From IMG/VR virus record IMGVR_UViG_3300037454_000319: a stretch of 64,000 nt of DNA, one strand, 5' to 3'. Of this stretch, positions 7,598 through 64,000 are shown piece after piece. Position 1 is the first letter of the stretch. Every line of letters begins with the position of its first letter. The notes under the pieces are model-generated. The model saw only the letters and a program-made list of their open reading frames with translations, ran no database searches and was not told where the DNA came from. A program made the translations under genes and the position numbers. This DNA is from a virus.

Positions 7598-7660
7598 TTT
7601 TCAATTTTGCTTTTCCATTTGAAATAGTTGTACTTATATGTGATTTACTTGTGCCGCCCG

Positions 7661-7867
7661 TCAAAAAATTTCATCTTCGGGCACTTCAAGGGTTGCAGTC
7701 AAATTCAGAATGAACCTACTTCCATCTATTTTAGTCATAATTTCCTTACTAAAATAAGGGGCAAAGATAACTGCAGGTATAACCTTAGCATCTTCTGGAC
7801 AATCTTCATTTACTGCGCCAACGATTTTCCCATTTACAACAATGGGAGTAAAACGTCCTATTTCCAT
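7661..7867 (-). CDS. hypothetical protein
   Basis: ORF; RBS GGAGGT. Confidence 0.45.
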   Translation of the reverse strand: MEIGRFTPIVVNGKIVGAVNEDCPEDAKVIPAVIFAPYFSKEIMTKIDGSRFILNLTATLEVPEDEIF

Positions 7868-7870
7868 AGC

Positions 7871-8170
7871 TTACCTCCAGTATCTATCTATCATTCTCTG
7901 CATATTGTCTCGACCAACTATGTTTGCAGTATGGAGCTTAACAGGATAAAAACGCTCTGTCTCGACCATCCAGTCGAGGAGTTTTATTGCGTCGCCGCCG
8001 TCCTTAGCGTAATCGCCGAGGTCATGGTCGAGGTCAAGTTCAATCTGAACGTCCTCAAGTCCTTCGGCGGCACGGATTACAAGCTTTGCCTGATTTACGG
8101 ACTTAAGCGCCCACCATGTCTTGTCTGGGGCAGGACGAATATCGTCGAGCCATATTTTTACTATCTTCAT
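7871..8170 (-). CDS. hypothetical protein
   Basis: ORF track. Confidence 0.5.
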   Translation of the reverse strand: MKIVKIWLDDIRPAPDKTWWALKSVNQAKLVIRAAEGLEDVQIELDLDHDLGDYAKDGGDAIKLLDWMVETERFYPVKLHTANIVGRDNMQRMIDRYWR

Positions 8171-8190
8171 ATTCGTCCTCCTTTATAAAA

Positions 8191-8418
8191 TTATTCGTGG
8201 TATCTGCCGTCTCCCTTCTTTGACGGGAAAATAAAACCTGCAAGAATGAAGGCGATAAATGGAATTATCAATGGCAGAAATACTCCAAGCCAGCCAATAG
8301 TAGCCCAGCCTATAAGTTTTGCAATAATAAGGGCAATAGTTACGATGAAGCCTATCTTAAGACCTAACGTAGCTAATAGACCTATTATAAGGGAAGCCAC
8401 AATTCTAAATGAACTCAT
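8191..8418 (-). CDS. small membrane protein (2 TM)
   Basis: hydrophobic ORF. Confidence 0.5.
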   Translation of the reverse strand: MSSFRIVASLIIGLLATLGLKIGFIVTIALIIAKLIGWATIGWLGVFLPLIIPFIAFILAGFIFPSKKGDGRYHE

Positions 8419-9992: not shown

Positions 9993-10459
9993 TAATCATA
10001 GTCCTCCTCATCGAAATCTACTTCGGACATATCGCAGTCCTCATACATTTGCGCTTTTACTTCAAGCTTATTATACTTATCTACAAGTTCGTTATACTCA
10101 AGACGAAGATTTTCATAGAGCGCTTCATAGTCAGGTTCAATATAACCGTATGCAAGACGAGATTCGTAAGACTCCATATCTGTATATTCTGTCTCTGCGA
10201 AGTATTTCTTAAGCTCTATAACCTTATCAATGTTTTCCTGAGTATCAGATAAATGACAAAGCTCAATCATAATTATCTTGGGCTGTGCCGCCACAGCAAG
10301 GTTGAGGACAGTTTTAATGTCGTCCATCTTATCTGTGTCATAGATTACGATACCAGCTAACTTGTTAAGAGAATTAAGGTCGGCAGTCATATCGTAATAA
10401 TCCTGTATTGCGAAAGCGTCCTCACCGAACTCTTCAAAAGTTTTATATTCTAAAATCAT
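9992..10459 (-). CDS. hypothetical acidic protein
   Basis: ORF track. Confidence 0.5.
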   Translation of the reverse strand: MILEYKTFEEFGEDAFAIQDYYDMTADLNSLNKLAGIVIYDTDKMDDIKTVLNLAVAAQPKIIMIELCHLSDTQENIDKVIELKKYFAETEYTDMESYESRLAYGYIEPDYEALYENLRLEYNELVDKYNKLEVKAQMYEDCDMSEVDFDEEDYD

Positions 10460-12647: not shown

Positions 12648-13205
12648 TTAGTATTGAATGGGTTCGTAGTGTTCTATTCTCTCTTGCATTTCATCGTAAA
12701 GAACTCGAAGGTTCTTTAACTCATCAAGCCATTTGGCAAGCTGTAAATAGTTGTAATAATGTTCAGCACATTCACGATAATCTCTTGGATTTGAAGGAAG
12801 GTCTTTTAGATATGGTCTTAAATTTAAAGCCTGTTTCTTGTAATATTCCATTGCTTCGTTTAAGGTACGTTTCTTTAAACCACTAAGGTCGGTAGAAATA
12901 TCTATGTTAATATCACTCCACCAACCTCCTGTGCCGCCCGCCGATACAACTCTCTCTGAACCGTCTCTCCAGTAAGTACATCTATCAGTTTCGCCTAACC
13001 AAGTTGACTTAACAATTAGCCCATCAACTGTTGTCGAATATGCATGGCCTGGTGTGCCTGCATTTGGAGAGTTTTTCGCTCTCCATTCAGCAATTTCTTC
13101 TAAAGCTTCCTTTACAGTAATGTCCTCTTTGGAGAACTTTACTTCATAAACATAGCTCCAGCCGCCACACATCTCTGGGTGTCCACCTATTTCTTTAACT
13201 TCCAC
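12648..13205 (-). CDS. hypothetical protein (185 aa), GTG start overlapping upstream stop
   Basis: ORF; RBS GGGAGG inside 46-bp repeat. Confidence 0.5.
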   Translation of the reverse strand: MEVKEIGGHPEMCGGWSYVYEVKFSKEDITVKEALEEIAEWRAKNSPNAGTPGHAYSTTVDGLIVKSTWLGETDRCTYWRDGSERVVSAGGTGGWWSDINIDISTDLSGLKKRTLNEAMEYYKKQALNLRPYLKDLPSNPRDYRECAEHYYNYLQLAKWLDELKNLRVLYDEMQERIEHYEPIQY

Positions 13206-13717: not shown

Positions 13718-14848
13718 TTAATCCTCCTTTGGCAGTTCTATCTTAAATAATGAAATGAACTTAGATGTGGTCATATCAGTAAATAAAGAATCTAAACGAC
13801 CGTCAAAAGCAGCGAAGTAAAGTGCCGCAGCCTTGTTCTTTCCGAAGTCCTGCGCGAACCACTTACGAGCAGTACGGTCGCCCTCTCCAAATGGGTGCTC
13901 CTTCTTCCATAATGATACAACTCTCTTTATTTCATATACTAATATATCTATTGCTTCAAGCTGTAATCTAACCTTAGTAAATGTATCCTCATACTCAGGA
14001 AAGTATGATAAAAACTCTGCGTCATCATTCTCACGAATTAAATCTACAATACGCTCTAAAGTAATTACTCCGTTGTTCTTTGCCTTGTGCATTTGGAAGT
14101 AAAGTAAAGTCTTAATCTTAACACGCTCATAGTTCTTGTCACATACAACAATACCTTCATGACCTTCAGGCATATTTGCGACAAGCTGACGATATTCTGC
14201 TTCATCTTCAAGGAGATATGTCTTAGGACAGCTAACTCCTAATTCTTTTGCAATTTGCCGAGCCGCAGGAGTTTCGTGAAGGTCTTCAGATAGCATATTA
14301 CGTGCAGAAAGAAGATATACCTTAGTCTCAGGATAGTCAATAACAACCTTGTTATAAGGAGATACAAGCTCGAAAGTTAAGCAATAAGGCTCATAACGGT
14401 TACCCACGAAGGCGGATAGAGGAAGTACAGACTCGAAGAGGTCTCCGAAAGTCTTATAAGGACCTACGCCGTTAAGCTCAGCCTTGAAAGCATCTATCTT
14501 GCCGTTTGTTGATATATGCCACTTGCCGCGAGCAAACCATACAGACATTATAGAGCCATCTATCTTCTCAGATGCAACGGCAGTATCCCAGTCTATATGA
14601 GCTGCATAGGACTCGTCTATATTGAAGAACTTCTTGAACGCATAGCGAACTACCTTGAAGTCATCACGAGCATCAAGGATAAGACCACGAGCCTCGCGGC
14701 AAATTTCCTCGTTAAAGTCAGAGTCTATCTGGCTATACTTGAAAAGAACGAAGCCGTCGTCCTCAGAAATTTTTAAGTTGTAAGGCGCATCAGCTAAAAG
14801 TTCACGCCAGTTATCATGTGCAAGGATAAACTCCTGTATTTTTAACAT
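13718..14848 (-). CDS. ATP-dependent RNA ligase, T4 Rnl1-like
   Basis: nucleotidyltransferase motif I EKIDGS (KxDG); ~375 aa like T4 Rnl1; genome rich in tRNA and other RNA-repair genes. Confidence 0.55.
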   Translation of the reverse strand: MLKIQEFILAHDNWRELLADAPYNLKISEDDGFVLFKYSQIDSDFNEEICREARGLILDARDDFKVVRYAFKKFFNIDESYAAHIDWDTAVASEKIDGSIMSVWFARGKWHISTNGKIDAFKAELNGVGPYKTFGDLFESVLPLSAFVGNRYEPYCLTFELVSPYNKVVIDYPETKVYLLSARNMLSEDLHETPAARQIAKELGVSCPKTYLLEDEAEYRQLVANMPEGHEGIVVCDKNYERVKIKTLLYFQMHKAKNNGVITLERIVDLIRENDDAEFLSYFPEYEDTFTKVRLQLEAIDILVYEIKRVVSLWKKEHPFGEGDRTARKWFAQDFGKNKAAALYFAAFDGRLDSLFTDMTTSKFISLFKIELPKED

Positions 14849-16212: not shown

Positions 16213-16785
16213 TTAAAATCTTCTTCCAGAGAAGAAGCCTTCTTCTGTATAGTCAATATTGTGATTATATGGAACGACTCTTATCTTGAAACGATAGTGA
16301 GTGTCGTCAGGGTTAACGAATGAACGCTCTACTGTTAAATCGAAGTTATTATCTTCCTGCATAATATCACGTGCAAATTCCTGTGCCACCCTATCAAGGA
16401 ACTGTTTCTTGGCATCGGGCACGTTTAAGAAGAATGAGCCGTCAACATGGATATCACGCACATATTCAATTGGCTGTGTCATAAAGGTTTCAAACTTCAA
16501 AGGACGGTTTTTATATTCATTAATTTGGTCTTGAAGGAACGCATTATTACGAGACAGTTCTTTGTTATTTTTCTTCATACGGACGGCAGTTTCATATAAT
16601 TCACTAATTTCATGGTTTTTTTGCAAGATTATGTCGTTTTTATTGTCAATTCTTTTGTCTCTTATTTTTACTTCATTCTCCAAGTCAGCAATCTTTTCAT
16701 CTCTGTCGGCAATCTTTATAACGAATATACAACCTTCAATGAAGAGAAAACCTATTAATAGGATAATATCTAATACTGGGTTCAT
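16213..16785 (-). CDS. membrane-anchored coiled-coil protein
   Basis: N-terminal TM helix then heptad-rich region. Confidence 0.5.
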   Translation of the reverse strand: MNPVLDIILLIGFLFIEGCIFVIKIADRDEKIADLENEVKIRDKRIDNKNDIILQKNHEISELYETAVRMKKNNKELSRNNAFLQDQINEYKNRPLKFETFMTQPIEYVRDIHVDGSFFLNVPDAKKQFLDRVAQEFARDIMQEDNNFDLTVERSFVNPDDTHYRFKIRVVPYNHNIDYTEEGFFSGRRF

Positions 16786-17705
16786 TAACCTTCCTCCTTA
16801 TCTGCCTTACCCTCAACGAAATCCATGAAGTCAAGATGTCCACCTGTTGATGTGTATGCGTAGTAAGCCAATATCTGAGAAGCATCGACTGCATTGATGA
16901 AACCGTCATTATTTACGTCGCCGCGCTCAAGGCTTATATCCATTATAAGAATTTCATACATTTCTATTTCATCTTCATATGCCATTATCTGAGCGAGATA
17001 TGTTGCGTTTTGAGCTTTAAGCTTTTCATTTTCTGCTTCATACTGAGCTGTATCGGAATGATACTCCTCAATTTTATAACCGTCCATGTTGAGGATGTCT
17101 GGTGTGATTACAATTTCATGTCCGAAGATTTGGAAAGTATATGTACCTGTTGGCTCTACGGTTGGAGTAAATGTTATACTATGAAGCGCATTACCATTAG
17201 TTCCAGATTTAGGTCTCTCTTCAGAAAAACCTAATGTTGGAAGTGTTGTTGGCATATAAATTGAACCTACATCAAGTATCGCACAACCATTATAAAAATA
17301 TTCTTTTTTATATTCTTTAGGATACAAGTTAACATGGAAATCTTCAACATCAAATGGTGTTCTATCTTTTATTATTAAATCAATAGTTGCATCTAAATTT
17401 GCATCACCGTCTGGTTGCTGAGAAAAAGGGAGTTCGCCAAAAGTCAATCTATGTGAAATAGTTGCGAAACCATCCCACTCATGGGTATTCCACCAATAAA
17501 CCTTAACTTCTCCGTCATTATAAATATCCGCTTCGACAGCAATATAAGGATACTTCATATCTGCGTTGTCATCAATCCAATATGAAGTTGTCCACTTCTC
17601 TGTCTTAACAACCTCTGGCTCAATAACTTTCGCATCAACACTCAGCAAGCTGAGGTTGCAAAAAGCTATTGCAAATGCCATTAATATACCTATAAACTTC
17701 TTCAT
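16785..17705 (-). CDS. secreted protein with signal peptide and C-terminal dockerin-like repeat (GDVNNDGFINAVDASQILAYYA)
   Basis: N-term MKKFIGILMAFAIAFCNLSLLSVDA; C-term Ca-binding dockerin motif. Confidence 0.6.
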   Translation of the reverse strand: MKKFIGILMAFAIAFCNLSLLSVDAKVIEPEVVKTEKWTTSYWIDDNADMKYPYIAVEADIYNDGEVKVYWWNTHEWDGFATISHRLTFGELPFSQQPDGDANLDATIDLIIKDRTPFDVEDFHVNLYPKEYKKEYFYNGCAILDVGSIYMPTTLPTLGFSEERPKSGTNGNALHSITFTPTVEPTGTYTFQIFGHEIVITPDILNMDGYKIEEYHSDTAQYEAENEKLKAQNATYLAQIMAYEDEIEMYEILIMDISLERGDVNNDGFINAVDASQILAYYAYTSTGGHLDFMDFVEGKADKEEG

Positions 17706-18046: not shown

Positions 18047-18693
18047 ACTCTTTTACCTGCCTTTCTGCCAAAAGTTATATCAAATAACTTATCGCCAAAT
18101 CTTAACTTTTTAAACTGTATTGTGCCGCCCTGCTCAATCTTCTCCCAATCAGCCTTATCAACTTCAAAGGTTGAAGTCTTTTCATTATAAAGTCCTATTA
18201 CTTCATAACGCTCCGTATGGTCGCGGCGGCGCAGGTCACCAAGCTGTGGATTGGGAACATCAAATGGCTTATCACATTCAGGCTCATGTGGTTTCTTATC
18301 AAAGCCCATTTCGCAAACTGAATGTGACTTACACCACTCATTTCTTTTATAATGATAACGTGTTGTGTAATAAACTTCTTGATGTGTCCGTGCTGCATGG
18401 TAATGTCCATCTGAGTCTGTATAAGCTGGACTATCTGTTACAGTTCGATAATGCGTATCAAGTGTAGTATAAACATCATATGCATCAGAAGGTGGACATG
18501 ATTCCGAAGAATGGGAGCAAACTTTGTATTCCTCAATAGGAATTGTCCATATCCACCGTGTACGGTCTACTTTCATTTCGCCACTGATTGGAATTGCAAG
18601 GAACAAAATTAGTGCGGCGAGCACTGTAAGTATCCCGCCGCCAATGCAAGCTTCCGAGTGGTCGTAGTAGAAATCTTTAATTTTCTCCCACAT
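18043..18693 (-). CDS. membrane-anchored hypothetical protein, Cys/His/Tyr-rich ectodomain
   Basis: ORF; N-terminal TM. Confidence 0.5.
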   Translation of the reverse strand: MWEKIKDFYYDHSEACIGGGILTVLAALILFLAIPISGEMKVDRTRWIWTIPIEEYKVCSHSSESCPPSDAYDVYTTLDTHYRTVTDSPAYTDSDGHYHAARTHQEVYYTTRYHYKRNEWCKSHSVCEMGFDKKPHEPECDKPFDVPNPQLGDLRRRDHTERYEVIGLYNEKTSTFEVDKADWEKIEQGGTIQFKKLRFGDKLFDITFGRKAGKRV

Positions 18694-20226: not shown

Positions 20227-20811
20227 TTACCAACCATTCTTTAGGTCGCATACAAGTTTATAAATCTCCGCCCAGTTCTTTGCCCAGTAAACGTGCCAAA
20301 GGTCCTGCATAGTGTACATCTCCACGGCGGCACCTGTATTCCAAGGATAAGCTAAACAGATAGAAGTATAAAGTCTTTCGCCAGTTAGGTTATCTAAGTA
20401 GTCGTCAATCATAATGTCAATGTTAAGGAGCTGCTTCTTCTTCATACTAATGGCGTGCTGTTTAACATATCCTTCGGGGAAGAAGGGGAAGCTTCTTGTT
20501 AAGAAGCTGACTTTCTTACGGAAATTATGCTCTGTTGTAGCAGTTACAAAGTAAATCTCATGTCCATCTTCATACAATTTCTGTATGTACTGTGCCGCCC
20601 CATCAATGAGTTTAACCTTTTTCCACATACGCGGGTCCTCAAAGATTAGAGGAATTACATTACTGTACTCATCAGGAATACAGCTCTCCATCCAATAGGC
20701 AGTAATATCTTCTATTTTTAAATCCAAAGCTGGGAATAACTCATTCATATGCTGAAGGACACATTCTGTAGTATTTGTTATAATGTTGTCAATATCTATA
20801 CCTATTTTCAC
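20227..20811 (-). CDS. HAD-superfamily 5'(3')-deoxyribonucleotidase-like phosphatase
   Basis: N-terminal MKIGIDIDNIIT (DxDxT motif I). Confidence 0.5.
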   Translation of the reverse strand: MKIGIDIDNIITNTTECVLQHMNELFPALDLKIEDITAYWMESCIPDEYSNVIPLIFEDPRMWKKVKLIDGAAQYIQKLYEDGHEIYFVTATTEHNFRKKVSFLTRSFPFFPEGYVKQHAISMKKKQLLNIDIMIDDYLDNLTGERLYTSICLAYPWNTGAAVEMYTMQDLWHVYWAKNWAEIYKLVCDLKNGW

Positions 20812-39113: not shown

Positions 39114-39187
39114 TGGCTTCTGCGAAGGGAGTCGAACCCCTATTCTAAGAGCCAAAATCTTATGTCCTACCATTAGACGACGCAGAA
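39114..39187 (-). tRNA. tRNA-Gln (TTG)
   Basis: acceptor TTCTGCG/CGCAGAA, loop TTTTGGC. Confidence 0.5.
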
Positions 39188-48610: not shown

Positions 48611-49173
48611 TTTAATTCCTCCTTTTCTACATTTTCCATTCTTTCATAAGTAAGCATACCATCAATTAAATATGGGATTGATTTATATTCAACAGGAGAA
48701 TAACCCCAATGTTTAATTGATAAATTCAAAACATTCTTATCAAAACGTTTCTTACTCTTAATAAGGTGTTGTGCCGCCACGTAATAATCTGCCTTGATAT
48801 TAAAATCCTTAGACGACATTGCAAGAACGATTGAACTCGGTTTCCCATCGACAGTACCTTGCATCCACCCGCCGGTCGAAGCAACACGATTTATGCCGAT
48901 TTTTAGCCACTCGTTTTCGGAAAATTTTTTTGAATAGAAAAATTGTCCATAGTCTATGAGGTGCTTAGTGCCTGTGAGCTGCGTTATGACGTTTTTTGTT
49001 TCAGTTAATAAACCTGATGTAACATTTCCGATTAGAAGAACTGTATCTTCTGGTTGAACAATGCTGTTCCAGTTTTTAATAATCATTTGATTATACGCAG
49101 GAACTTTATCTTTTCCGCCAGCCTCTATGGAACTAAACAGGTTTAAATCTGCACATATATATAGATTTCCCAT
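48607..49173 (-). CDS. hypothetical protein
   Basis: ORF. Confidence 0.45.
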   Translation of the reverse strand: MGNLYICADLNLFSSIEAGGKDKVPAYNQMIIKNWNSIVQPEDTVLLIGNVTSGLLTETKNVITQLTGTKHLIDYGQFFYSKKFSENEWLKIGINRVASTGGWMQGTVDGKPSSIVLAMSSKDFNIKADYYVAAQHLIKSKKRFDKNVLNLSIKHWGYSPVEYKSIPYLIDGMLTYERMENVEKEELK

Positions 49174-50311: not shown

Positions 50312-50416
50312 TATAAATTCCTCCTTTTCGGTCCTTTCGGACTTCGAGGGGAACACGCAATTTCGTCTCGCGACGATATATTTAAGTAGATATTTAATGG
50401 GTTTTATCTACAAAAA

Positions 50417-50929
50417 TCATTCAACTTCAAAGTCTTCAATGATTAAATCATTGAATCCCCAGAATAGAATTAAACATTCATCATCAATGATATGAGCACA
50501 ATATCCTTTTATTCCAAAAAGTTCTTCGTGAAAAATGGCAACTTGAAGGTACTCATTTTCATTTTCAGTTGGTGGATATAACCCACTAATTTCATCTACT
50601 ATTTGCTGATAGTCGTCAGGGTTATCCAATGTGTTGTAAGTCGTCAGCCAATTTAAGGCTGTCGTAAATATATCAAAAGGTTGGTCAAAAAATAGTTCTG
50701 TACCGGGCTCCAATAGCGGGGCTAAACCACTGATACTAAATTTAGTTTTATCAGTAATATGCCCCTGCTCAAAGAGCCACTTCCTAACCATACCCATTAA
50801 AACTATTTTATGTTGTTTTGTTAATGGAATTAACGGAGAAGTAGCTCCCACTAAAGCTTCATGGAAACCTATTTGTATACCAATCTTCATATTTTCATCT
50901 GAATAAATAACCTTAGCTTTCAAAGTCAA
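50417..50929 (-). CDS. hypothetical protein
   Basis: ORF. Confidence 0.45.
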   Translation of the reverse strand: MTLKAKVIYSDENMKIGIQIGFHEALVGATSPLIPLTKQHKIVLMGMVRKWLFEQGHITDKTKFSISGLAPLLEPGTELFFDQPFDIFTTALNWLTTYNTLDNPDDYQQIVDEISGLYPPTENENEYLQVAIFHEELFGIKGYCAHIIDDECLILFWGFNDLIIEDFEVE

Positions 50930-52040
50930 TCATCCCTATCGCAGACTTATCGAATAATTTTCCAGCTTCAGCACTACGTGGAACTGGGTGACCATTCTTA
51001 CGTCTAATTTTAGAAACTCTGCTACACCAATACAAAGCATTTTCTGCTCTTGTCGCGGCAACGTATGCAATCTTACGCTCCTCCTCACTATAAAGAAGAG
51101 CACCTGTTACAATAACATTTTTATTCTCAAGTCCTTTTGCAGAATGAATTGTAAGAACTTTAACTCTGTTGTCTTTCATTAAAAGCTGAAGCTCTTCTTC
51201 ATCAAGGTCTCCCTTTTTAAATGTTACGTTTGGAATTTCTTCGTCGTCAAGAAGGTCTTGTACAGCCGCGAGGTCTTCATTTGTTCGAGTTAAAATGAAC
51301 CATGAACCCCATTTCTGAGAGTCCTTTAAATCTTCAAGAGCATCTCTAAATGGGAACAAGTCGCCAGGTCTTCCTTCAACTATTCCATTCTTTGTTTTTA
51401 CGGCACTTGAAGAAGGACTTAATTTAATAGAAGTAGATATAAGCCCCTCGGCAAATGCTACAATATTTGGTGCATTACGATAATTTTCCGTTAAATAATA
51501 CTTGGTGAAATTAATATCTTCATACATACTAACAAGGTATTCATCTGAACAACCTCGGAAACCGTAAATTGCTTGTCGGTTGTCTCCTACGAAGAAGATA
51601 TTTTCAGTCGGAATTTTGGTTAAAAACTTATACTCCAACGAACTCAAATCCTGACACTCATCAATTAAAAGATGTTTTATCTTTGGATATTTTGATGAAG
51701 GGATTTTTGAAGCTTTTAAAAGTATATTATCAAAATTATGATTTAATAAATCATCATCAGTATCTACACCATTTAAAATACAAATTTTATTTGCATAGGA
51801 ATGAATAGTTCCAATGAAACTGGATTGTGCCACGTCGCCTATACGACGGCGCATTTCCTCTGCCGCCATATTTGTAAATGTAATAGCAACAATATCTTCT
51901 GGCTTATTTCCTTTTTCTTCTATTAGAACTCTAATTCTTTCAGTAAGTACACGAGTCTTTCCACAAGCGGCACAAGCTAAACAAAGAATTTTAGGTTCTT
52001 CAGCATAGATAACTTTAGTTTGTCTTATGTTAAAATTCAT
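50913..52040 (-). CDS. UvrD/PcrA-like SF1 DNA helicase (compact)
   Basis: Walker A ACAACGKT, Ia ITFTNMAAEEMRRR, II LIDECQD, III VGDNRQAIYGFRG, IV ENYRNAPNI, V IHSAKGLE, VI YVAATRAENAL. Confidence 0.7.
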   Translation of the reverse strand: MNFNIRQTKVIYAEEPKILCLACAACGKTRVLTERIRVLIEEKGNKPEDIVAITFTNMAAEEMRRRIGDVAQSSFIGTIHSYANKICILNGVDTDDDLLNHNFDNILLKASKIPSSKYPKIKHLLIDECQDLSSLEYKFLTKIPTENIFFVGDNRQAIYGFRGCSDEYLVSMYEDINFTKYYLTENYRNAPNIVAFAEGLISTSIKLSPSSSAVKTKNGIVEGRPGDLFPFRDALEDLKDSQKWGSWFILTRTNEDLAAVQDLLDDEEIPNVTFKKGDLDEEELQLLMKDNRVKVLTIHSAKGLENKNVIVTGALLYSEEERKIAYVAATRAENALYWCSRVSKIRRKNGHPVPRSAEAGKLFDKSAIGMIDFES

Positions 52041-52124: not shown

Positions 52125-52646
52125 TTATCTCATTTCATCTCTTGTCTGCTGAATTAAAAGAATAAGTTGATTTAAACTTGCCGCAGGTCCATGAAAGGTT
52201 TCGTCATATCTTTCGAGTAACTGTTCTTGAGTTGGTTCGTCAGGATTAAACCAAGGACGTGTAGGGTCTGTATACCCCTCTGTTATGAAGTAAACATAGC
52301 GACTGTTTTCATCAGTAAACATAGAAGGAAGTTCCTGCCATTGCTGATATGTAACGTCGAAGTGGAAACCCTGTGGGTCCCATTGGTACTGTACTTCTTC
52401 AGCTCCTCTATCCTTTAAAATCTCATACTCCTGAGCAATTTGTTCTTTCTTTGCGTTAGTAAGTGCAACCATAAAGTTGTACATTGTGCCGCCCGGCACA
52501 TTAGGAAGTTTAGTATCGAATACGAATCCGATACTAACTTCTTTTTGAGCTTCTGAATCAAGTTCTATTTGAGGCGGCTCAGAGTCTTTTTCAATGGTGT
52601 CGTAACTAAAATCGACATCATTTTCCATTAATTCATCTCTGTTCAT
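52125..52646 (-). CDS. hypothetical acidic protein
   Basis: ORF. Confidence 0.5.
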   Translation of the reverse strand: MNRDELMENDVDFSYDTIEKDSEPPQIELDSEAQKEVSIGFVFDTKLPNVPGGTMYNFMVALTNAKKEQIAQEYEILKDRGAEEVQYQWDPQGFHFDVTYQQWQELPSMFTDENSRYVYFITEGYTDPTRPWFNPDEPTQEQLLERYDETFHGPAASLNQLILLIQQTRDEMR

Positions 52647-53758
52647 TTAAGCCCTCCGTATAATTCTTTAAGGTAATCTTCTGTCACCTTTCCATGAATA
52701 TAGAAATCCTTTCCAAGAGTATCAGGAAGAATTGTAGGCCAATCCCACCAAAATACGCCAGCGAAGTATGGGTCGTTTAAAAATACTTCCATACATGACT
52801 CATAGAAGTGCTTCTGTTCCCACTCATCATATGCAAGGTCTGCTGTGAAGTCCCAAGGATGACGAGAAGCACCCATTACTGAACGACAGCCAATCTCCAT
52901 AAAGATAAACTGTTTATTACGCTGTGCCGCGATAGAGTCGAGACGATAACGAACTTCCCACCAACCTTTAACCATTTCTTCATATGAAGTAACATGAGCA
53001 TTTTCACAGATTGGGTAGTATGCAGAAGTTGCAATATAATCAAGAGTATCGAACCAGCCTTGGTCATCTTCGTGTCCATGATTTGTATTATAAATGATAA
53101 TACCTCTATAAACACGACGAACCTCACTAATTAAGTAAAGCCAATCATCTTTTCGATTTTCTGAACCAAGCATTTCACAGCCAATACAAAGCATTTCAAT
53201 TCCACAATGCTGAGCAAGTTCTGCATAGTGAAGAAGGAAGTTCTTATAGCTCTCAAACCAAGGGCCCCAGTAAGAATTTTTGTCGTCCATATCGAGTTCA
53301 GGGAATGAGATATATGCTCTCCAAACATTATCTTCGCAATGAACCATAGGCTTTAAGCAGACTTTTACTCCCCTATCATGTGCCGCCTTAGCAAATGTTT
53401 CTATGTCATGGTCTGACGGTGTACGAAGATGGTCTGCATATATACGTGTTGAATGATATGTTTCTTGATAATTTACTACTGTTAAACAAGTCCAGTTAAT
53501 GTTTAAGTCATACATTGCAGCCTGTGACTGCTGCCCTTTTATAGAAGTTATTTCTCCACGATTGGCAAAGTATCCATATGACATACCAAGAAATTTCTCG
53601 GATTTATCGACTGGCGGCACAGTAGCCTTTGCGGTTTCAAAAGGTTCCCATATTAATTGACCATCTGAATAGCCAACTTCACGATGTTTATGATTATTAA
53701 ATTCAATGTCTCCGCCATCTGAGCCAAATGTAGCATTATGTTTGAAATCATACTCCAT
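52643..53758 (-). CDS. TIM-barrel glycoside-hydrolase-like protein
   Basis: Trp/aromatic-rich, NTNHGHEDD and MEIGCRS motifs typical of (beta/alpha)8 glycosidases; family unassigned. Confidence 0.4.
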   Translation of the reverse strand: MEYDFKHNATFGSDGGDIEFNNHKHREVGYSDGQLIWEPFETAKATVPPVDKSEKFLGMSYGYFANRGEITSIKGQQSQAAMYDLNINWTCLTVVNYQETYHSTRIYADHLRTPSDHDIETFAKAAHDRGVKVCLKPMVHCEDNVWRAYISFPELDMDDKNSYWGPWFESYKNFLLHYAELAQHCGIEMLCIGCEMLGSENRKDDWLYLISEVRRVYRGIIIYNTNHGHEDDQGWFDTLDYIATSAYYPICENAHVTSYEEMVKGWWEVRYRLDSIAAQRNKQFIFMEIGCRSVMGASRHPWDFTADLAYDEWEQKHFYESCMEVFLNDPYFAGVFWWDWPTILPDTLGKDFYIHGKVTEDYLKELYGGLK

Positions 53759-54828: not shown

Positions 54829-56484
54829 TTAAATCATTGAAACGAATGTGCCTGGATGTGATGTTTCAATTGCTGCCCAAGAAGCATTTGCTAAATAATC
54901 ATTATAAAGTGCCGCAGGAACATAAATTGAACCATAGACTCCATTAAGTCCGCCTGGTTTTAATGGCGAACTGTTAAATACATTTGCAGCAGAACTATTA
55001 AGTTGTATTATTGCATCTGTATTAAGTAAGTATAATGAAGTTAATACCGTGCAACCAGCAAATGCCGATTTTCGTATATAACCAAATGTGCCGCCCAATG
55101 AAACCGTTTGTAAACTCTTACAATCCAAAAAGTTATTTCCACTTGTTGACATTGTAGAAAGATTAGGCAAATTAACTTCAGAGAGTCCAGTATTTTGTAA
55201 TGCTCCATATCCAAGATTTGTTACATAACTTAAATTAGTAATTTCTGATAAACTTACACAACCAATAAAAGCGCCTTGACTTAATGTAATGTTATTAGTT
55301 CCAAATGAAACTTTTGATAGAGCTATACAGTCCATAAAGCAAGAATAAGGAACACTCGAAACTAATGATAAATTAATCTCTTGTAACATTTTGCAACTTT
55401 GGAAAGTATATTGATTAAGATTTTGAAGTGAAGGAAGATTAACTGTAGTTAAAGAGCTGCACATAACAAAGCATCTATCATAAAGTGAAGTTATTGAAGG
55501 ATGACTAACAAGGGTTAATGATGAATTTCCATAAAAACAATATTGTGGGAAGGTTGTCATTAATGGAAATTCTGTATCAGTAATTTCTGAAAAACCGCAA
55601 TTTCTAAATGCATAACCAGCAATTGAAGTTAAATTTGGAGCATAGAAATCAGATAATGATATACAACCATCAAAAGTATTGTTGCTTATAGCTGTTAATA
55701 TTGGAAAACTTGCACTACAAAGGCTCTTGCAACCAGCAAAAGTTGAACTATTAAAAAAGGATGATAATATTGGTAATTCAATTGAAGTAAAACCAGTATT
55801 ACCAAAGGTAGTTGTTCCAATATAATCCATGCTTTCAAAATTCAAACTTGTTAATCTTGAGCAATTTGCAAAAGCTTCTTTATACGCCCTTGATAATATA
55901 CCTTCTACTTTTGAAAGTTGCGAGCAACCAGTGAAAGCATTTGAACCAATAGAAGCACAATATTCAAATGTAACTTTTTGTAAGGCAGAGCAGCTACCAT
56001 TAAAAGCGGCATCATCAATTTTTGTAAGAGAACCAAATGTTACCTCTGATAATTGACGACAATTTGCAAAGGCATTCGTTCCAACAAATGCACAACTTGG
56101 AGCACTGAATTCCGATATTGCCGCTCCATAAAATGCATTACTTCCAACATATTCACATTTAGGAAAACTTGCTGTAGCAAGACTTGGACAATTAAAAAAA
56201 GCAGAACTTCCAATTGTCAATACATTTTCAAAATTTACGCCCGTTACCTTCGGGTCGCTATAAAAACAATATGGCTTTAATACACTACATTGAGTATCAC
56301 TTAATGAATAATAATCAATAGCTTCTATTTCTAATTTAAAATTACCATTATCGCCGCCAGTAGGAATTGATAATATATCTGAAGCCATATCAGTTGTCAG
56401 AATGGGAGCTACTGTCCCATTCTGACTTCTTATTGCATCAGCGATATCTGTCAATATAGAGCCATCAATTTTATAATAGCTCAT
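54829..56484 (-). CDS. tail fibre / receptor-binding protein with BspA-type leucine-rich repeats
   Basis: repeats IGSSAFFNCPSL.../VGSNAFYG.../IGSNAFTGCSQL (LRR_5-like). Confidence 0.55.
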   Translation of the reverse strand: MSYYKIDGSILTDIADAIRSQNGTVAPILTTDMASDILSIPTGGDNGNFKLEIEAIDYYSLSDTQCSVLKPYCFYSDPKVTGVNFENVLTIGSSAFFNCPSLATASFPKCEYVGSNAFYGAAISEFSAPSCAFVGTNAFANCRQLSEVTFGSLTKIDDAAFNGSCSALQKVTFEYCASIGSNAFTGCSQLSKVEGILSRAYKEAFANCSRLTSLNFESMDYIGTTTFGNTGFTSIELPILSSFFNSSTFAGCKSLCSASFPILTAISNNTFDGCISLSDFYAPNLTSIAGYAFRNCGFSEITDTEFPLMTTFPQYCFYGNSSLTLVSHPSITSLYDRCFVMCSSLTTVNLPSLQNLNQYTFQSCKMLQEINLSLVSSVPYSCFMDCIALSKVSFGTNNITLSQGAFIGCVSLSEITNLSYVTNLGYGALQNTGLSEVNLPNLSTMSTSGNNFLDCKSLQTVSLGGTFGYIRKSAFAGCTVLTSLYLLNTDAIIQLNSSAANVFNSSPLKPGGLNGVYGSIYVPAALYNDYLANASWAAIETSHPGTFVSMI

Positions 56485-59400: not shown

Positions 59401-60055
59401 TGTCGCTATCAGAGCTGCCTTTACCAGTTCCGTTCATTTCAATAACTGCTGTGCCGCCAATATCAATCTTTGGACCAGTTAAACTTGTACTCCAAAACTT
59501 TCTATTATCTGAAGTATAATCAGAACCAATATCGCCAATATTAATTTTAGCAGCACCAGCTATTCTTTGTGAAGCGCTATTCTGAACAATATATCCGTTC
59601 TTAAAAGAAGGAACAGAAGCTGGTGTAGTAGTTGAAGGTCCGATATAACCAAAAGCTGCTGGATAATAGTCTGAACTAACATCTGTACCAACCACGAACT
59701 CAGTTGGCGCTCCAGGTAATGTCTCTCCTGTTCTTGTTCCCATAACATAATAGTTATATCCATTTTGAACTGCCCAATTTGCAGGGTTACCGCTTGGTCC
59801 AGTTGCTACAAGTATTTTATTAGCATCTCCTAAAATTGTTGATATTGGTTTAAAAGCTTCTTCAGTTGCATCGTAATAATAAGCTTTATTAACCTTATAG
59901 TTAGCAGCACTTGTATTAGTAGCATTTTTTACAATGTATATGTGGTCTGACTGTTTAACTGCCAAATCTGCAAGGTCTGAATACTTTTCAACAGTAGTTA
60001 CGTCTTTAGAATCTGCCGCACCATATGGAATTCCATTACGGATTATAATTCCCAT
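56498..60055 (-). CDS. large tail fibre / host-specificity protein (1185 aa)
   Basis: size, Gly/Ser/Thr/Tyr-rich beta composition, position in structural block. Confidence 0.55.
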   Translation of the reverse strand: MGIIIRNGIPYGAADSKDVTTVEKYSDLADLAVKQSDHIYIVKNATNTSAANYKVNKAYYYDATEEAFKPISTILGDANKILVATGPSGNPANWAVQNGYNYYVMGTRTGETLPGAPTEFVVGTDVSSDYYPAAFGYIGPSTTTPASVPSFKNGYIVQNSASQRIAGAAKINIGDIGSDYTSDNRKFWSTSLTGPKIDIGGTAVIEMNGTGKGSSDSDTPVLSMRGRCLVDMCGSRVTGTQEVGYGRARTASWWPHAMDSYEQDPFDSTKRLNTNTVAYPYLHMHDESTILMDGAPILNMRGNSMLSINGDVCIDINGRNPINRGSFGSAGAGYGDVAIDIRPGTAIQIGTGQESTSSNPTTSMIRLTKNQLVVASALPKETDVSSTSCISQLYMDTTNGYATSYEGELFPFKYTSNSGTSGLFNFYSGPIAKWDASTMNNRIGSWAYSGVWGDGPGKNVGPVVWMQGKSRIKIGDGGTFSAVLGGMGNVSISMEPQSMSSTEIYMASAGYSADVINIANESNSFTTFHHGAGPNAATKYEFTPHGNTLFRFNPKEKFLANVDCSNTEMLFQWTGMYGFFQGNNNYALLDGAQTHLENVGNAFIMRDDTTKELYAEREGQDPSYTGYAFRGGYQPSGTALQDITSLPADEAAFVSSDMYSTAMAQFNSAKSSLPNGAYIDNPDVVFYAKLNYYGKPDTYYSPYNTNYYRYFDFVYPMRITLKGADSAVNVEFDSTEAIAGTSDYSYWYSMQTATKNAIVNNADFISALSTLLGADIWQYKYELDFYNAKYQRTTTENGYHYKIAYMCVILHQSFTVHKLWDSTATPGAPSSGYQIPTYDEPYTSIAALYNSNTLPANWELYTNQKSGTIHTRWRLQTYEAGSVTGLDKWRRGAYVNYTNDPQANVAWSQPVQTGESGDTKTIFQMYNRANLMMRADTINKPYCNEYVQRPCTDVYEYTFTPSETYTVPTDSTYQFTSTTSYGSGVITSESGINMFIQGGTYGTATDYKDFVEYVKTTEHDGVWGITSIERTNSSSPYAYTVTYKKLSQKTAIGTQLNTFINGADYSAFTTYLTTTYPDKELWRIVDIASGTGGDLIIRFTLKDASYTEYIKTPVTDDPVLEMVGRSELRMYGGAYIKGETKYGETVFTFGSTTSNEPPVSFTLAQLAAAISGGGAQLPNAADQQF

Positions 60056-60362: not shown

Positions 60363-60376
60363 TGAAAGACTTCTCT
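60351..60376 (-). terminator. terminator agagaagtc-aagtgaaa-gacttctct fused to promoter 30
   Basis: 9-bp stem + T-run. Confidence 0.6.
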
Positions 60377-60384
60377 CTTTAATT

Positions 60385-62826
60385 TTATGAGTATTGATAG
60401 TTACCTGCACCAACGCCACGATTGAATAAACGACAACCACTACGATAGCCATTCATTGTCGGAATTGTATTCTCAGGTTTAACATTATCAAGTGCCGCCT
60501 GCTGAGGACCGCTTATAGAAGGACCACTAATATTCTCATAACGAAGATTAATTGTTCCTGCATTTTGGTCTTGAGGCTGAGTAATAAAGTTTCCACCAAA
60601 GATTAACTGTGAGCCATCTTCAGCAACACTGAATGTGTAATCACAAATCTTTAATGTATTTCCAGCTTGTGCATTTATATCATTGATAGTAACTTTACCA
60701 TCATTAACAATTAAACGTCCTGATGTTGGGTCGTATTCACCATCGGTTACTGTAAAGATATATTGTCTTGCTTTTGTATTTCCTTGTGAAACATAACGAG
60801 GACGCCATAAAGCTTCATTCCAGAATCCTTCAACTCTCTTTACGAAGCCAAGATGTTTAACCTCTCCATTTAAGACGCCAACTATCGTTCCATAGTAGCC
60901 TTTATACCAAACACATGTGCCGCCACTCATCCAAGGTTCAATACCCATATGAGTGAGGAAGATTTTTAATGTTGAAGTATCAGGCTGAACATCGTTTATA
61001 TAGTCTTGAACTATTTTAACACCGAGGTTCTTTAGGTAATTGTCATCATTAAATATCTTATCACAACTTACAAGATTATTTCTACTAAGAGGAACTGTAC
61101 GGTCATTAGGAAGGAACTTGATAGCTCCAAAACATTGGCCGCCGACACCGCTTGTTTTAATAGTTCTTGCATAGACACCATATTTACTAACTTCGCCGCC
61201 CTCAACCCATTCTGCATTGTAGTTGAAGACTGACTCAGGTACAATATGTCCAATATTAATTGTTTGGAAGTCAACATTCTGAACTGGAACTAATGAACCA
61301 GTCAACTTGTACCATGACATTACTTCACCCATATAAACCGCATCTTTAATCTGATTATAGTTTATATCATGGAATGTTTGGTAGTAAGGGAATGGAGGTC
61401 TTTCAGTTATTAGTTTAACTAAATTCATTGAGCAAGTTGTATTATGCTGTATTGATGTAGGTTCAACTTCAAGTTTAAATACAGTCTTATCATAACTTGC
61501 TTTACTTCCCCATACCTGTGCCGCGGCATCAATGTACTTCAACTCAAACTTATCTATTCTCAAATTATCTCCGTCAAATCCTACTTCGATATCTGGTATC
61601 ATTCTAAGCATAGCATACATGCGTTTACCAGCATTTGCATAAGCTTCTACATCTGAATATGGAGAAAATGCCTGATATGTAACCTCTTCTTCTCTTATTG
61701 AGACAAGATATTTCTCATATTCATAATCAACAATAGTATGCTGTCTAAGGTCTATTGTCGGTTCTAAGTTGTTGATATTTAAACGAGCATATTGCCATCT
61801 ACCGAGTCCTCTAAAGTACCAGAAGATAAATGGATAATTTTCTGCTGAATACCAGTTTCTTTGATAGTTATTCTTTCTTATAACTGGAAGAACTACGAGG
61901 TCTTGGTTACTATATTTTTCTTTTAAATAATCAATGCGGTCAATTATATCTTGAACATTTAATGTTTCAGTCTCAAAGTTATCAAACTTTCTATAAGGCT
62001 GGAGTTCATTATTTGAAAGATAAACAACTTGAATAGAAATCTCCTTACCAGTTTTTTGAGTAATTGAAGCATATTCCATCCAAAGGTATGCAATGTTTTC
62101 CCAAAGCTGAGTACACTCATCGAATACTCTCTTCATCATCTCTTTCAATTCACTCTCAGGGTCAAATAAATACTTACAAAGTGCCGCGAGAACCTGGGCA
62201 ATAACCCAAAAGTTTCTATTCAAATCCTCAACCTCAACATGGTGAGAGTTCTGAGGCATTAGTAAACGTATCCATTTGCTGTTCTCATTATCGGGTGGCG
62301 GCAAGGTCTCAGGCTGAGTATGTGTATACTGCATAGCGGCATATTTCTTTAAAGCGTCAAGTGCCGCGTCGTCACCACGAATTGACTCATACATACGTCT
62401 ATCAACATTTCTACTTGGTTCAACCCAAGGCCAGTCTATGAAACTAACACCTGCATCAGCTTCCTTAAGGTCTTGAATTATATCTTTTGTAATACCCTGA
62501 TAATCGGGGTCTTCATAGTTTGCAATATTATCATTGAAATACTGAATAGCACTCTCTACTGACTCATTCCAAAAGTCAGTAGAGGTATCTTCAATGTCTC
62601 TATATAAAACACTATTTGTTAAGTGATTAGCATAGTCAGAATAGGTCTGAATGTAATCAAGAACAGAATCAGCGGTTGGAGGATTAATACTCATATTACC
62701 ATTTTTAATTTCATCGAGTATTTCTTTCCAAACCTTTGCAATATCTGCTGGACCTAAGTCTAATTCTTTAGCGAGGTTAGTGATTAGACCATCATAATCC
62801 CTCAATTTTGCAATTATATTTTCCAT
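60385..62826 (-). CDS. large tail/baseplate protein (813 aa)
   Basis: central region paralogous to 62838..>64000 (EDLNRNFWVIAQV...). Confidence 0.55.
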   Translation of the reverse strand: MENIIAKLRDYDGLITNLAKELDLGPADIAKVWKEILDEIKNGNMSINPPTADSVLDYIQTYSDYANHLTNSVLYRDIEDTSTDFWNESVESAIQYFNDNIANYEDPDYQGITKDIIQDLKEADAGVSFIDWPWVEPSRNVDRRMYESIRGDDAALDALKKYAAMQYTHTQPETLPPPDNENSKWIRLLMPQNSHHVEVEDLNRNFWVIAQVLAALCKYLFDPESELKEMMKRVFDECTQLWENIAYLWMEYASITQKTGKEISIQVVYLSNNELQPYRKFDNFETETLNVQDIIDRIDYLKEKYSNQDLVVLPVIRKNNYQRNWYSAENYPFIFWYFRGLGRWQYARLNINNLEPTIDLRQHTIVDYEYEKYLVSIREEEVTYQAFSPYSDVEAYANAGKRMYAMLRMIPDIEVGFDGDNLRIDKFELKYIDAAAQVWGSKASYDKTVFKLEVEPTSIQHNTTCSMNLVKLITERPPFPYYQTFHDINYNQIKDAVYMGEVMSWYKLTGSLVPVQNVDFQTINIGHIVPESVFNYNAEWVEGGEVSKYGVYARTIKTSGVGGQCFGAIKFLPNDRTVPLSRNNLVSCDKIFNDDNYLKNLGVKIVQDYINDVQPDTSTLKIFLTHMGIEPWMSGGTCVWYKGYYGTIVGVLNGEVKHLGFVKRVEGFWNEALWRPRYVSQGNTKARQYIFTVTDGEYDPTSGRLIVNDGKVTINDINAQAGNTLKICDYTFSVAEDGSQLIFGGNFITQPQDQNAGTINLRYENISGPSISGPQQAALDNVKPENTIPTMNGYRSGCRLFNRGVGAGNYQYS

Positions 62827-62837
62827 TCACTCACCTC

Positions 62838-64000
62838 TTAAGTAGTTATTATTTCTGAACTAACAAGCTCTCCTTGATAATAACCTTTGGTTATATCTAA
62901 AAGAGTTTTATTTGCACTTGGTGCTTCAGCAGGAGTTACAAATGAACCATTCTGCCATATTACTGTAGACTCACCTGTTATGATTTCCTGTGCCGCGTCG
63001 CTATATGAAATATCTACATTAACTGTAAATAAATCATTATCGGCATCATACTCTGCATCAATCTCATATGTAGGTCTAAGCAACTCAAAATATACATCTC
63101 CTGCAACATCAGTAGGTGCTGCACTGAATGGAGCATAGTATTCATATTGGCTTTCAGAATATTCTCTAATACCATATGTATAATCCTTATGTCCAGACTC
63201 AGTAAGGTCAATTGTATAATTGATAGTCTGCCAACTTGTTACTCCAGTATTGCGATTTGCAATGAGAACGCCGGGATATATAACCTTTGAGTAATAATTA
63301 CTACGATAATTATTAACACGGACTTCAGGAATAATTACAAGATGACACTCTTCATATTGCTTAAGCAAACCTTCAAGTCTTTCTTCACAAAGCTCTTGTA
63401 AATCACCAATTGAACTAATATCAAAGTTATCATACTTTAAATATGGGTATTCAGCGCCAACAGTAAGCGGCACAACTTCTTTGTGGATTTTAGTTACTAC
63501 TGGGTCTTGACCTAAAACAGCAAGTGCCGCCCAAAGACCGTCAACATTTTCCCACATATCTATAATTGCTTCGGTTAAGTCTTTAAAAGCCTTACCCATG
63601 CCGCCGCCCTCATCAAAAAGATAAGCACTAATACCTGTTATAACTTGAGCAATAACCCAGAAGTTACGATTAAGGTCTTCAATCTCTACATTTCGAATAT
63701 TCTCAGGCATGATTAAACGAACCCACTCTTGGTCTACATCATCTTGTGTAAATTGAAGATTTACAGCATTTGTTAATGCATTAAGGTTCTTATCATTTCC
63801 ACGAACTGTTGCATAAGATTTTCCATTGATATTATACCAAGGGATAACCCAAGGTGCTGTTACAGGATAACAAGCAATGCCAGGTTTTATATCATCGAGA
63901 TTATCAACTGGATTTACCTTTATTGTATATTGGTCATTAAACTGGTCAATTAAAGCAATCCACTTGTCATGGCTTTCTTGTGCATTTTCTAAGAATTGAA
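62838..64000 (-). CDS. paralogous large tail/baseplate protein, 5' end beyond window (ORF-track 62838..63710 is truncated at an internal Met)
   Basis: open frame continues upstream of 63710 to window end; ...EWVRLIMPENIRNVEIEDLNRNFW aligns with ...KWIRLLMPQNSHHVEVEDLNRNFW of 60385..62826. Confidence 0.5.
   Translation of the reverse strand, partial: QFLENAQESHDKWIALIDQFNDQYTIKVNPVDNLDDIKPGIACYPVTAPWVIPWYNINGKSYATVRGNDKNLNALTNAVNLQFTQDDVDQEWVRLIMPENIRNVEIEDLNRNFWVIAQVITGISAYLFDEGGGMGKAFKDLTEAIIDMWENVDGLWAALAVLGQDPVVTKIHKEVVPLTVGAEYPYLKYDNFDISSIGDLQELCEERLEGLLKQYEECHLVIIPEVRVNNYRSNYYSKVIYPGVLIANRNTGVTSWQTINYTIDLTESGHKDYTYGIREYSESQYEYYAPFSAAPTDVAGDVYFELLRPTYEIDAEYDADNDLFTVNVDISYSDAAQEIITGESTVIWQNGSFVTPAEAPSANKTLLDITKGYYQGELVSSEIITT

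Follow-up and report, generated by a model that had tools for sequence, protein, structure and literature searches.

A strongly over-represented octamer in a large, tRNA-rich phage and its possible role as a Chi-like signal

The Chi sites read by AddAB in Firmicutes are G-rich, asymmetric words of 5 to 7 nt that combine a GCG(G) core with genus-specific flanks and favor the leading or coding strand; examples are AGCGG in Bacillus subtilis, GAAGCGG in Staphylococcus aureus, and GCGCGTG in Lactococcus lactis. Chi-rich phages have been described among the lambdoids, namely LLS, MD8, and about 70 others (Zheng et al., Genome Res 2025, PMC12315714; Bobay et al. 2013, PMC3784561). LLS carries 23 Chi sites, one per 1.86 kb, in an orientation ratio of 20:3, while the ratio in MD8 is 32:0; in both phages the sites are concentrated near the RecBCD entry end, and a recombination module is missing (PMC12315714). 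A different kind of oriented word is the nick site of phage tf, T5/BF23, and phiKMV-like phages, a degenerate 9-mer that occurs 14 times in 46 kb and is shared in place by relatives; in tf, a single DNA strand carries all the sites in both of two convergent transcription units (PMC3517423). Here, we describe an octamer, GTGCCGCC, that recurs throughout a 64-kb stretch of the viral record IMGVR_UViG_3300037454_000319 (the window, i.e., the whole 64,000 nucleotides analyzed). Since the minus strand carries essentially all genes of the window, the coding-strand form of the word is GGCGGCAC.

The octamer resembles the Chi sites of the lambdoid phages in several respects: it is asymmetric and the top 8-mer of its DNA, it occurs about once per 1.8 to 1.9 kb with a 4-7:1 skew, its minority of opposite copies exceeds chance, one-letter variants are abundant, copies gather toward one site, and neither a recombination module nor a RecBCD inhibitor is recognizable. 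With the AddAB Chi sites of Bacillus and Staphylococcus it shares a conserved GCGG-containing core flanked by variable positions. The lambdoid words, however, are the known Chi of a known host (GCTGGTGG, GCTGGCGC) with demonstrated RecBCD dependence, whereas the candidate-host DNA sampled here lacks the word; the present phage is further set apart by two orientation domains, nearly saturated synonymous slots, and a core common to its whole family. The AddAB sites, in turn, were established by biochemistry or genetics in the host and, at 5 to 7 nt, are shorter. The reading we favor, tentatively and at somewhat less than an even chance, is that GGCGGCAC represents the optimal form of an asymmetric, protein-read word (core GCGGC/GCGGCA) that is kept as a Chi-like signal.

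Over-representation of the octamer and selection on its sequence

An exact search of the 64 kb located GTGCCGCC 29 times on the plus strand and 7 times on the minus strand (36 copies, one per 1.78 kb), which makes it the commonest 8-mer of the window; 100 dinucleotide-preserving shuffles yielded 0.35 copies on average and 2 at most. The massive over-representation announced in a preliminary description of this DNA was thereby confirmed, and it proved stronger than that description could tell. Under an order-3 Markov model 2.1 copies are expected (z = 18.5), so that the enrichment over a Markov background, which that description had proposed to check by exact counting, holds at this order; at orders 5 and 6 the signal disappears into the model, since the sub-words nested in the octamer are enriched as well. 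The GC content of the window is 37.9% rather than the approximately 35% given previously. All 28 plus-strand coordinates listed earlier lie within 50 nt of real copies (e.g., 12941 for 12931 and 60867 for 60917), and the listed sites are real, but one plus-strand copy at 691, outside the range covered by that list, and two minus-strand copies at 8066 and 20326 had been missed. The flanks of the plus-strand copies are unconserved except for an A just after the word (23 of 29), indicating that the copies are isolated words and not fragments of a longer repeat. Their spacing is random-like, with a coefficient of variation of 0.84 to 0.94, which rules out regular spacing and is as expected for a signal selected for its density.

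Within genes, nearly all copies fall into two frames, GGC-GGC-ACN (encoding G-G-T, 13 copies) and xxG-GCG-GCA-Cxx (encoding A-A followed by Q, L, H, or R, 12 copies), with a single copy in G-R-H, which corrects the earlier statement that the motif falls in all three reading frames. When synonymous codons were shuffled within genes, 2.3 ± 1.3 sense copies and 0.36 antisense copies were expected, compared with 25 and 5 observed. The occupancy of slots, i.e., positions at which the encoded peptide permits the word through synonymous choice alone, was also determined: 25 of 46 sense slots are filled (12 of 16 for G-G-T), as are 5 of 22 antisense slots (3 of 4 for V-P-P), while 30 composition-matched control words filled 0 to 3 slots. 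The proteins themselves are affected as well. The tripeptide G-G-T is found 16 times instead of the expected 3.3 to 3.8 (4-5x), with GTG (4) and TGG (7) near expectation, and L, P, H, Q, or R follows Ala-Ala in 41% of cases, compared with 20% expected. Selection thus acts on the DNA word itself, in both orientations, and is strong enough to alter proteins; with more than half of the synonymous opportunities used, its strength is unusual for a phage genome. As the enrichment survives protein-preserving synonymous shuffles, the earlier view of a DNA-level signal that is no codon or peptide artifact stands, and the slot results together with the orientation along the map (see below) exclude a peptide-level reading. 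A signal at the level of RNA or translation (mRNA stability, an RNase site, or a codon-pair effect) would agree with the window copies being mostly on the coding strand and within open reading frames. It is at odds with the use of two reading frames, with selected antisense copies in wholly different codons (V-P-P, 3 of 4), with the presence of intergenic copies, and with a region beyond the window, arm C, in which copies are preferentially antisense to genes; antisense slot filling and the orientation in arm C effectively refute it, and we assign it next to no probability.

According to counts of single substitutions, the core is sharply defined, and only positions 1, 7, and 8 tolerate other letters. 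One-letter variants are enriched, not depleted; the one-mismatch variant GTGCCGCG (coding strand CGCGGCAC) does exist as described previously, although not about 6 times, since 8 sense and 2 antisense copies were counted. Of the hexamer GCGGCA, the coding strand of the window has 66 copies and the other strand 25; after masking of the tRNA genes, its counts are 59 and 21, compared with 4.6 and 3.2 expected. The counts of the pentamer GCGGC are 90 and 36, compared with 12.9 and 9.6 expected. GCGGCA is preceded by G in 67% and followed by C in 61% of its copies, and since these flanking letters are roughly independent, the octamer appears as the top of a graded preference. The core hexamer has a density of about 1 per 0.7 kb and the octamer one of about 1 per 1.8 kb. 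The enriched neighbors also bear on the notion that the word is a functionless by-product of mutation or repair bias (Vsr-type very-short-patch repair or GC-biased gene conversion) pushing near-cognates to GGCGGCAC. In principle, such a drive could occupy synonymous slots whichever way the word points and throughout the family, and a shared repair enzyme could yield a family-wide excess of GCGGC. One would then expect the one-letter neighbors to be depleted; moreover, G-G-T slots require A-to-C plus T-to-C changes at two third-codon positions, protein sequences are altered (G-G-T, as above), orientation varies by region, and no Vsr- or Dcm-like gene was detected. In E. coli, the word excess linked to very-short-patch repair is modest, and the 10-100x magnitude seen here lies far above it. 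We regard this explanation as very unlikely.

Orientation along the genome

To place the window in its genome, it was extended with JGI and IMG/VR contigs to a map of approximately 137 of the roughly 159 kb (the window plus loci L005, L007, L152, L155, L157, and L179). An exact-tag scan of JGI metagenomes aimed at lengthening arm C (see below) yielded just 2 kb, already known. Proteins identical to those of the window were found on an ENA contig of 158,845 bp (ERZ27257203 k141_2564544) as well as on contigs from JGI and Logan, and the gene just beyond the end of the 158,845-bp contig is present on a 50-200-kb contig, consistent with a genome that maps as a circle of about 159 kb. For description, we distinguish three arms relative to a site X: arm A comprises 80 kb including the window (L005 1-8826, the window, and L007 5413-12900) with genes pointing toward X; arm B, about 17 kb on the far side of X, likewise has genes toward X; and arm C contains structural genes pointing away from X, in the same circular direction as arm A. 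X itself is a 620-bp noncoding region (L007 12550-13170), approximately 7.5 kb past the left end of the window, at which two gene arms converge. It contains a terminator, a strong sigma-70-like promoter firing into X, about seven direct repeats (G)CAGCTCAC within 140 bp, and the GC-rich palindromes GGCCCGGG/CCCGGGCC, and is a candidate for a pac/cos site or DNA end, a replication terminus, an origin, or a noncoding RNA locus.

The strand bias reported for the window is real, with 29:7 copies, but within the window it is inseparable from gene direction and comes close to what coding constraints predict. Specifically, the 6-mer exceeds the codon-shuffle null in arm A by factors of 4.7 for sense and 5.1 for antisense; as both orientations are similarly enriched, most of the 29:7 skew can be attributed to coding constraints under orientation-blind selection. 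Comparison between regions is more informative. The sense-to-antisense ratio of the 8-mer is 38:9 in arm A and 2:6 in arm C (Fisher P = 0.003), and slot occupancy (sense/antisense) is reversed from 53%/25% in arm A to 20%/67% in arm C. For the 6-mer core, the ratios are 69:34 in arm A, 5:13 in the first part of arm C, and 13:4 in its second part (P = 0.003 and 0.007); farther along arm C, in the tape-measure region, the word is again in sense orientation, with a ratio of 9:1 for the family of words matching at 7 of 8 positions. In arm B, it is again mostly on the coding strand. All 11 copies within ±7 kb of X are oriented toward X, at a density of about 1 per 1.3 kb. GC skew goes with the genes and not with the word. 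Since the word's orientation varies between regions whose genes run the same way, a polarity at the DNA level exists; it converges at X and diverges approximately 45 kb away, inside one block of genes with the same direction. This variation along the genome excludes a uniform packaging signal, one of the alternatives considered in the preliminary description.

An orientation-blind target in double-stranded DNA (for a methyltransferase, a restriction-related enzyme, a decoy or sponge, or a nucleoid protein), with orientation produced by coding constraint and chance, would account for the similar fold enrichment both ways in arm A, for the nearly equal orientations in some relatives described below (16:12 in L017, 16:11 in L160, and 6:9 in L182), and for the restriction-site cores in the words of some relatives (GCCGGC, CCGCGG, GCGGCCGC). 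Restriction sites are normally avoided, however, whereas the word is enriched 10-100x; no methyltransferase was detected, the words are asymmetric, with palindromes arising as overlapping inverted pairs, and ratios differ significantly among regions of the same gene direction. The placement of the antisense copies in arm A also argues against orientation-blindness: 8 of 9 sit 140 to 930 nt upstream, in the direction of transcription, of a sense copy, so that the coding strand reads GTGCCGCC...GGCGGCAC (random placement, P ~0.004, post hoc; the upstream distances are ordinary). Arm B did not show this pairing (1 of 3). We consider an orientation-blind target unlikely; the lack of any methyltransferase domain found in the ~137 kb and the enrichment set the word apart from restriction and methyltransferase targets, so that the restriction-modification word proposed earlier is unlikely.

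Two classes of polar words invite comparison. Like the nick sites of tf, the octamer is a phage-specific word that occurs far above chance and whose positions are conserved among relatives. Unlike in tf and T5, the preferred strand flips at X and at ~45 kb, and the minority of 20-25% of the copies is also under selection; with the word mostly on the coding strand in arm B, the T5/tf one-strand rule is ruled out, and with it a nick site of this type. KOPS/SRS, the sites of FtsK/SpoIIIE, are likewise 8-base polar words converging on one site, but the KOPS skew is near-absolute, its reverse is unselected, and it serves the segregation of cell chromosomes, with no role known in lytic phage DNA. 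Here, the skew amounts to 65-80% and reverse copies are positively selected, and we therefore rejected membership in this class. Primase recognition sites also fit poorly, as the word has 6 to 8 nt instead of 3 to 5 nt, no primase was detected in the ~137 kb, and the geometry agrees only if an origin lies at the divergent switch; the replication-priming signal named in the preliminary description retains some probability.

Related phages and the individual copies

No DNA-level match to the window was found by blastn among the INPHARED phages, and no relative of the 1185-aa protein was found in IMG/VR; an exact 61-mer scan of IMG/VR was also empty. More than 20 relatives, on contigs of 135 to 187 kb, were identified by homology to the DUF2828 protein and to a structural protein of 772 aa. 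GCGGC/GCCGC is enriched 5-10x in 17 of 17 related loci tested; Ruminococcus phages outside the family, R. albus DNA, and Oscillospiraceae genome loci reach just 1.2-2x. The extended word differs by lineage, namely GGCGGCAC in L013, GGCGGCGC in L015, GCGGCA in L160, GCGGCC in L172, CGCGGC(R) in L182, and CCGGCA in L017. It is asymmetric in every lineage, the apparent palindromes of relatives being overlapping inverted copies. In L013, with a nucleotide identity of 87%, the word keeps its position at 7 of 11 sense and 2 of 3 antisense sites, and several orthologous sites bear the relative's own letter (GGCGGCGC), i.e., letter 7 was switched at the same physical site. Three leads were discarded: CCGCCACC-type words in L017 were traced to one proline-rich gene; P0042 and P0128, taken for two arms of one relative, proved to be loci from different phages; and an IMG/VR scan for two copies 100 to 130 nt apart gave at least 120 matches, of which those inspected were all Gly-Gly-Thr repeat or collagen-like tail fiber genes of mid- or high-GC phages, a coding artifact of the short-gap design that is uninformative here.

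The 36 copies of the window are given below, with their state in L013 and L015 where the orthologous site is informative; sense and antisense are relative to the minus-strand genes, and tripeptides denote the reading frame.

691-698, plus strand: intergenic, between ribosome-binding site and ATG of a 102-aa gene
1621-1628, minus strand: 3' arm of an intrinsic-terminator-like hairpin, GGGCGGCA-TTTT-GTGCCGCCC
7651-7658, plus strand: sense copy
8066-8073, minus strand: antisense copy
10285-10292, plus strand: sense copy, A-A-Q
12931-12938, plus strand: sense copy, G-G-T
18122-18129, plus strand: sense copy, G-G-T
20326-20333, minus strand: antisense copy, G-A-A
20592-20599, plus strand: sense copy, A-A-Q
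24800-24807, plus strand: sense copy in RNA ligase gene, kept in L013
26461-26468, plus strand: sense copy, G-R-H; orthologous site is GGCGGCGC in L013 and L015
27093-27100, plus strand: sense copy, G-G-T
27784-27791, plus strand: sense copy, G-G-T, kept in L013
30680-30687, plus strand: sense copy, kept in L013
30996-31003, minus strand: antisense copy, V-P-P, kept in L013
37635-37642, plus strand: sense copy, intergenic in tRNA cluster, kept in L013
39353-39360, plus strand: sense copy, kept in L013
40285-40292, plus strand: sense copy, G-G-T
41149-41156, plus strand: sense copy in kinase/HD gene, kept in L013
41478-41485, minus strand: antisense copy, V-P-P, kept in L013; GCGCCGCC in L015
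42182-42189, plus strand: sense copy; GGCGGCGC in L013
42604-42611, plus strand: sense copy, G-G-T, kept in L013
43220-43227, plus strand: sense copy, G-G-T
43373-43380, minus strand: antisense copy, C-R-P
44841-44848, plus strand: sense copy, G-G-T
45934-45941, plus strand: sense copy, G-G-T
47342-47349, plus strand: sense copy, A-A-Q
48771-48778, plus strand: sense copy, A-A-Q
52486-52493, plus strand: sense copy, G-G-T
53380-53387, plus strand: sense copy in GH113 gene
53613-53620, minus strand: antisense copy in GH113 gene, V-P-P
55088-55095, plus strand: sense copy, G-G-T
59451-59458, plus strand: sense copy, G-G-T
60492-60499, plus strand: sense copy, A-A-L
60917-60924, plus strand: sense copy, G-G-T
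63524-63531, plus strand: sense copy, A-A-L

The hairpin at 1621-1660, in the minus-strand reading, consists of the word and its complement, followed by the T-run TTTCTCCTTTTTT and, directly after it, a TTGACT promoter.

The distribution among relatives bears on the question of whose protein reads the word. A reader encoded by the phage family (a helicase-nuclease, nickase, replication or priming factor, or coating protein), for which the word would mark DNA as "self" or organize replication while the flanks co-evolve, is possible but on the whole doubtful. It fits the contrast in GCGGC enrichment between the 17 family loci and unrelated phages or candidate-host DNA, the single-letter differences between lineage words (GGCGGCAC, GGCGGCGC, GCGGCA, GCGGCC, CGCGGCR, CCGGCA), the letter 7 swaps at the same sites, and the selection of both orientations. 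The oriented, phage-specified 9-mers of tf, common to relatives, provide a precedent (PMC3517423), and if replication started at the divergent switch, the word would lie on the lagging-strand template, making priming geometrically possible. Conversely, no nickase, methyltransferase, helicase-nuclease, or primase candidate was found in the ~137 kb (mostly unannotated, with ~22 kb unseen), the breaks in strand preference at X and ~45 kb violate the T5/tf rule, known primase sites span only 3 to 5 nt, and no known system of this type drives synonymous slots to near-saturation. Rather unlikely, in our estimate, is the specific form in which this family of 155-180-kb AT-rich phages would encode a DNA-tracking polar reader of GCGGC-core words, comparable to a Chi/AddAB pair carried by the phage itself, in a "self-marking" system whose specificity drifts, with hundreds of sites being re-tuned.

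Gene content, host, and the nature of the signal

The source is a siphovirus of about 159 kb, rich in tRNA genes, with Clostridia as the probable host class; the environment of this AT-rich, large phage is probably the rumen, the relevant JGI samples of that origin being 3300028887, 3300031993, and 3300028832. Annotated genes of the window encode ThyX, a UvrD-like helicase, two RNA ligases, a kinase/HD protein, a DUF2828 protein, GIY-YIG and HNH homing endonucleases, GH113, GT2, and two dockerin-bearing proteins. The window contains at least three GIY-YIG genes and one HNH gene (including 46581-47621, 3947-4576, and 36609-37124). On locus L153 (15237-18285), open reading frames of 239 and 392 aa with no Pfam match lie on either side of a further GIY-YIG gene and are followed by one of 514 aa; judged by position, the first two look like a split large terminase and the third like the portal. 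The 38 tRNA genes form two clusters on the minus strand (window 1667-7169 and 33344-39187), one of them odd in that ARAGORN assigns it a 2-base anticodon (33492-33566), and three further tRNAs are found in the other arm (L152 5593-5986). These tRNA blocks are nearly free of the octamer. Beside the tRNAs, all on the minus strand, are RNA-repair-like genes (13718-14848, 24279-25211, 40871-41788, 31617-33065, and 29804-30304), a set comprising the two RNA ligases, the AAA_33 kinase/HD protein, the DUF2828/DUF7788 protein labeled "RNA-binding" in PHROGs, and a candidate Macro-domain protein, the last suggested by a faint Pfam match on the L013 orthologue only. The set suggests a counter-defense against host anticodon nucleases. 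Promoter-like words are plentiful on the minus strand throughout the window (e.g., 1570-1600) and also occur in L007 (12600-12640): AAATTTGACTTTTT corresponds to a −35 region with an A/T-rich upstream element (sub-word AAAGTCAA, 28 copies on the plus strand) and TATGATATAATA to an extended −10 region (sub-word TATATCAT, 22 copies), which suggests many strong, sigma-70-like promoters for host RNA polymerase.

Pfam and PHROGs searches of ~137 of the ~159 kb, in which most genes are unannotated, detected no DNA polymerase, primase, replicative helicase, single-stranded DNA-binding protein, or recombinase, nor an inhibitor of RecBCD or AddAB. The only replication-type genes seen were those for a DnaQ-like exonuclease (L152 13964-14707) and the UvrD-like helicase (window 50913-52040); the missing replisome is either too divergent to be recognized, located in the unseen ~22 kb, or supplied by the host. 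With respect to the host, the nearest counterparts of the endolysin (61%) come from Ruminococcus phages, and Ruminococcus/Oscillospiraceae matches range from 49 to 61% identity. The first dockerin protein (49373-50356, minus strand) has a Pfam Dockerin_1 domain fused to a cell wall hydrolase domain, whereas in the second (16785-17705, minus strand) the repeats were seen by eye only; they point to a host with a cellulosome or amylosome and possibly to attachment via host cohesins. The dockerin-bearing protein had no match in PLSDB, and the sole NCBI-sourced homologue stems from a bulk metagenome assembly, which gives no host. In the R. albus 7 pRUMAL01 segment (L019, 1-50000), AGGCGTTT (6:0) and GGGCGTTT (4:0) are over-represented on one strand and may be an oriented word of R. 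albus's own, unrelated to that of the phage.

The numbers similar to those of LLS, together with the lack of a detected recombinase, inhibitor, or replisome gene and with the GCGG core, lead us to favor a Chi-like signal. Like Chi, the octamer is a short, asymmetric, over-represented word (36 copies versus 0.35, top octamer), and the absence of an own recombination module or inhibitor agrees with the Chi-rich class, if weakly, given ~137 kb of mostly unannotated genes. In the literature, the octamer was encountered only within unrelated primer or miRNA sequences, and neither GGCGGCAC nor GCGGCA was found reported as Chi. According to this model, a helicase-nuclease, most likely the AddAB or RecBCD of a Clostridia host, would travel inward from a double-strand end and, on reaching the word from its 3' side, would stop degrading and turn to recombination and repair. 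More copies would mean a shorter stretch of phage DNA lost, and the spared DNA could enter recombination-dependent replication and concatemer formation, functions that seemingly are not phage-encoded and would depend on the host. We infer that an end-processing nuclease of the host acts as the reader and that X marks a DNA end or a terminus of replication.

Several observations weigh against a Chi-like signal. The GCGGC core is common to the whole family, which a phage-encoded reader fits at least as well, and a large tRNA-rich phage differs from the temperate lambdoid type in which Chi enrichment has been documented. In arm A, enrichment is similar both ways and "wrong-way" copies are positively selected, so that the word is less polar than in MD8 (32:0). 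The polarity beyond arm A rests on small counts (2:6 for the 8-mer, 5:13 and 13:4 for the 6-mer), and one regional boundary is set by the start of a fetched locus. On the host side, GGCGGCAC has 0 copies in the pRUMAL01 segment of R. albus 7 (50 kb) and 0 copies in ~83 kb of low-GC Oscillospiraceae/Acutalibacteraceae/Ruminococcus loci from the endolysin-related clade; because the true host is not identified, this absence is a weak negative and no refutation. Two other Ruminococcus phages contain 1 to 2 copies per 50 kb. An anticorrelation of the word with a phage recombinase was not seen either: in the relative L183, a Sak4-like AAA_24 gene adjoins the locus, yet GCGGC is still enriched. The Chi-like signal first suggested in the preliminary description is therefore retained as the best available explanation, although the strand argument used for it is weak and support from the host side was not found; it is plausible, has precedent, and is unproven.

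If the word is the Chi of the host, the family would disclose which sequences AddAB/RecBCD recognizes in uncultured Clostridia of the rumen and gut, one variant per lineage (GGCGGCAC, GCGGCA, GCGGCC, CGCGGCR, CCGGCA), and the strategy of combining many Chi sites with no recombination genes would reach beyond the small temperate lambdoids of Proteobacteria to large Firmicutes phages. If the reader is instead encoded by the phage, the word would represent a new kind of phage self-recognition system; self-marking, if true, would allow the phage to separate its own DNA from that of the host in degradation, replication, or recombination.

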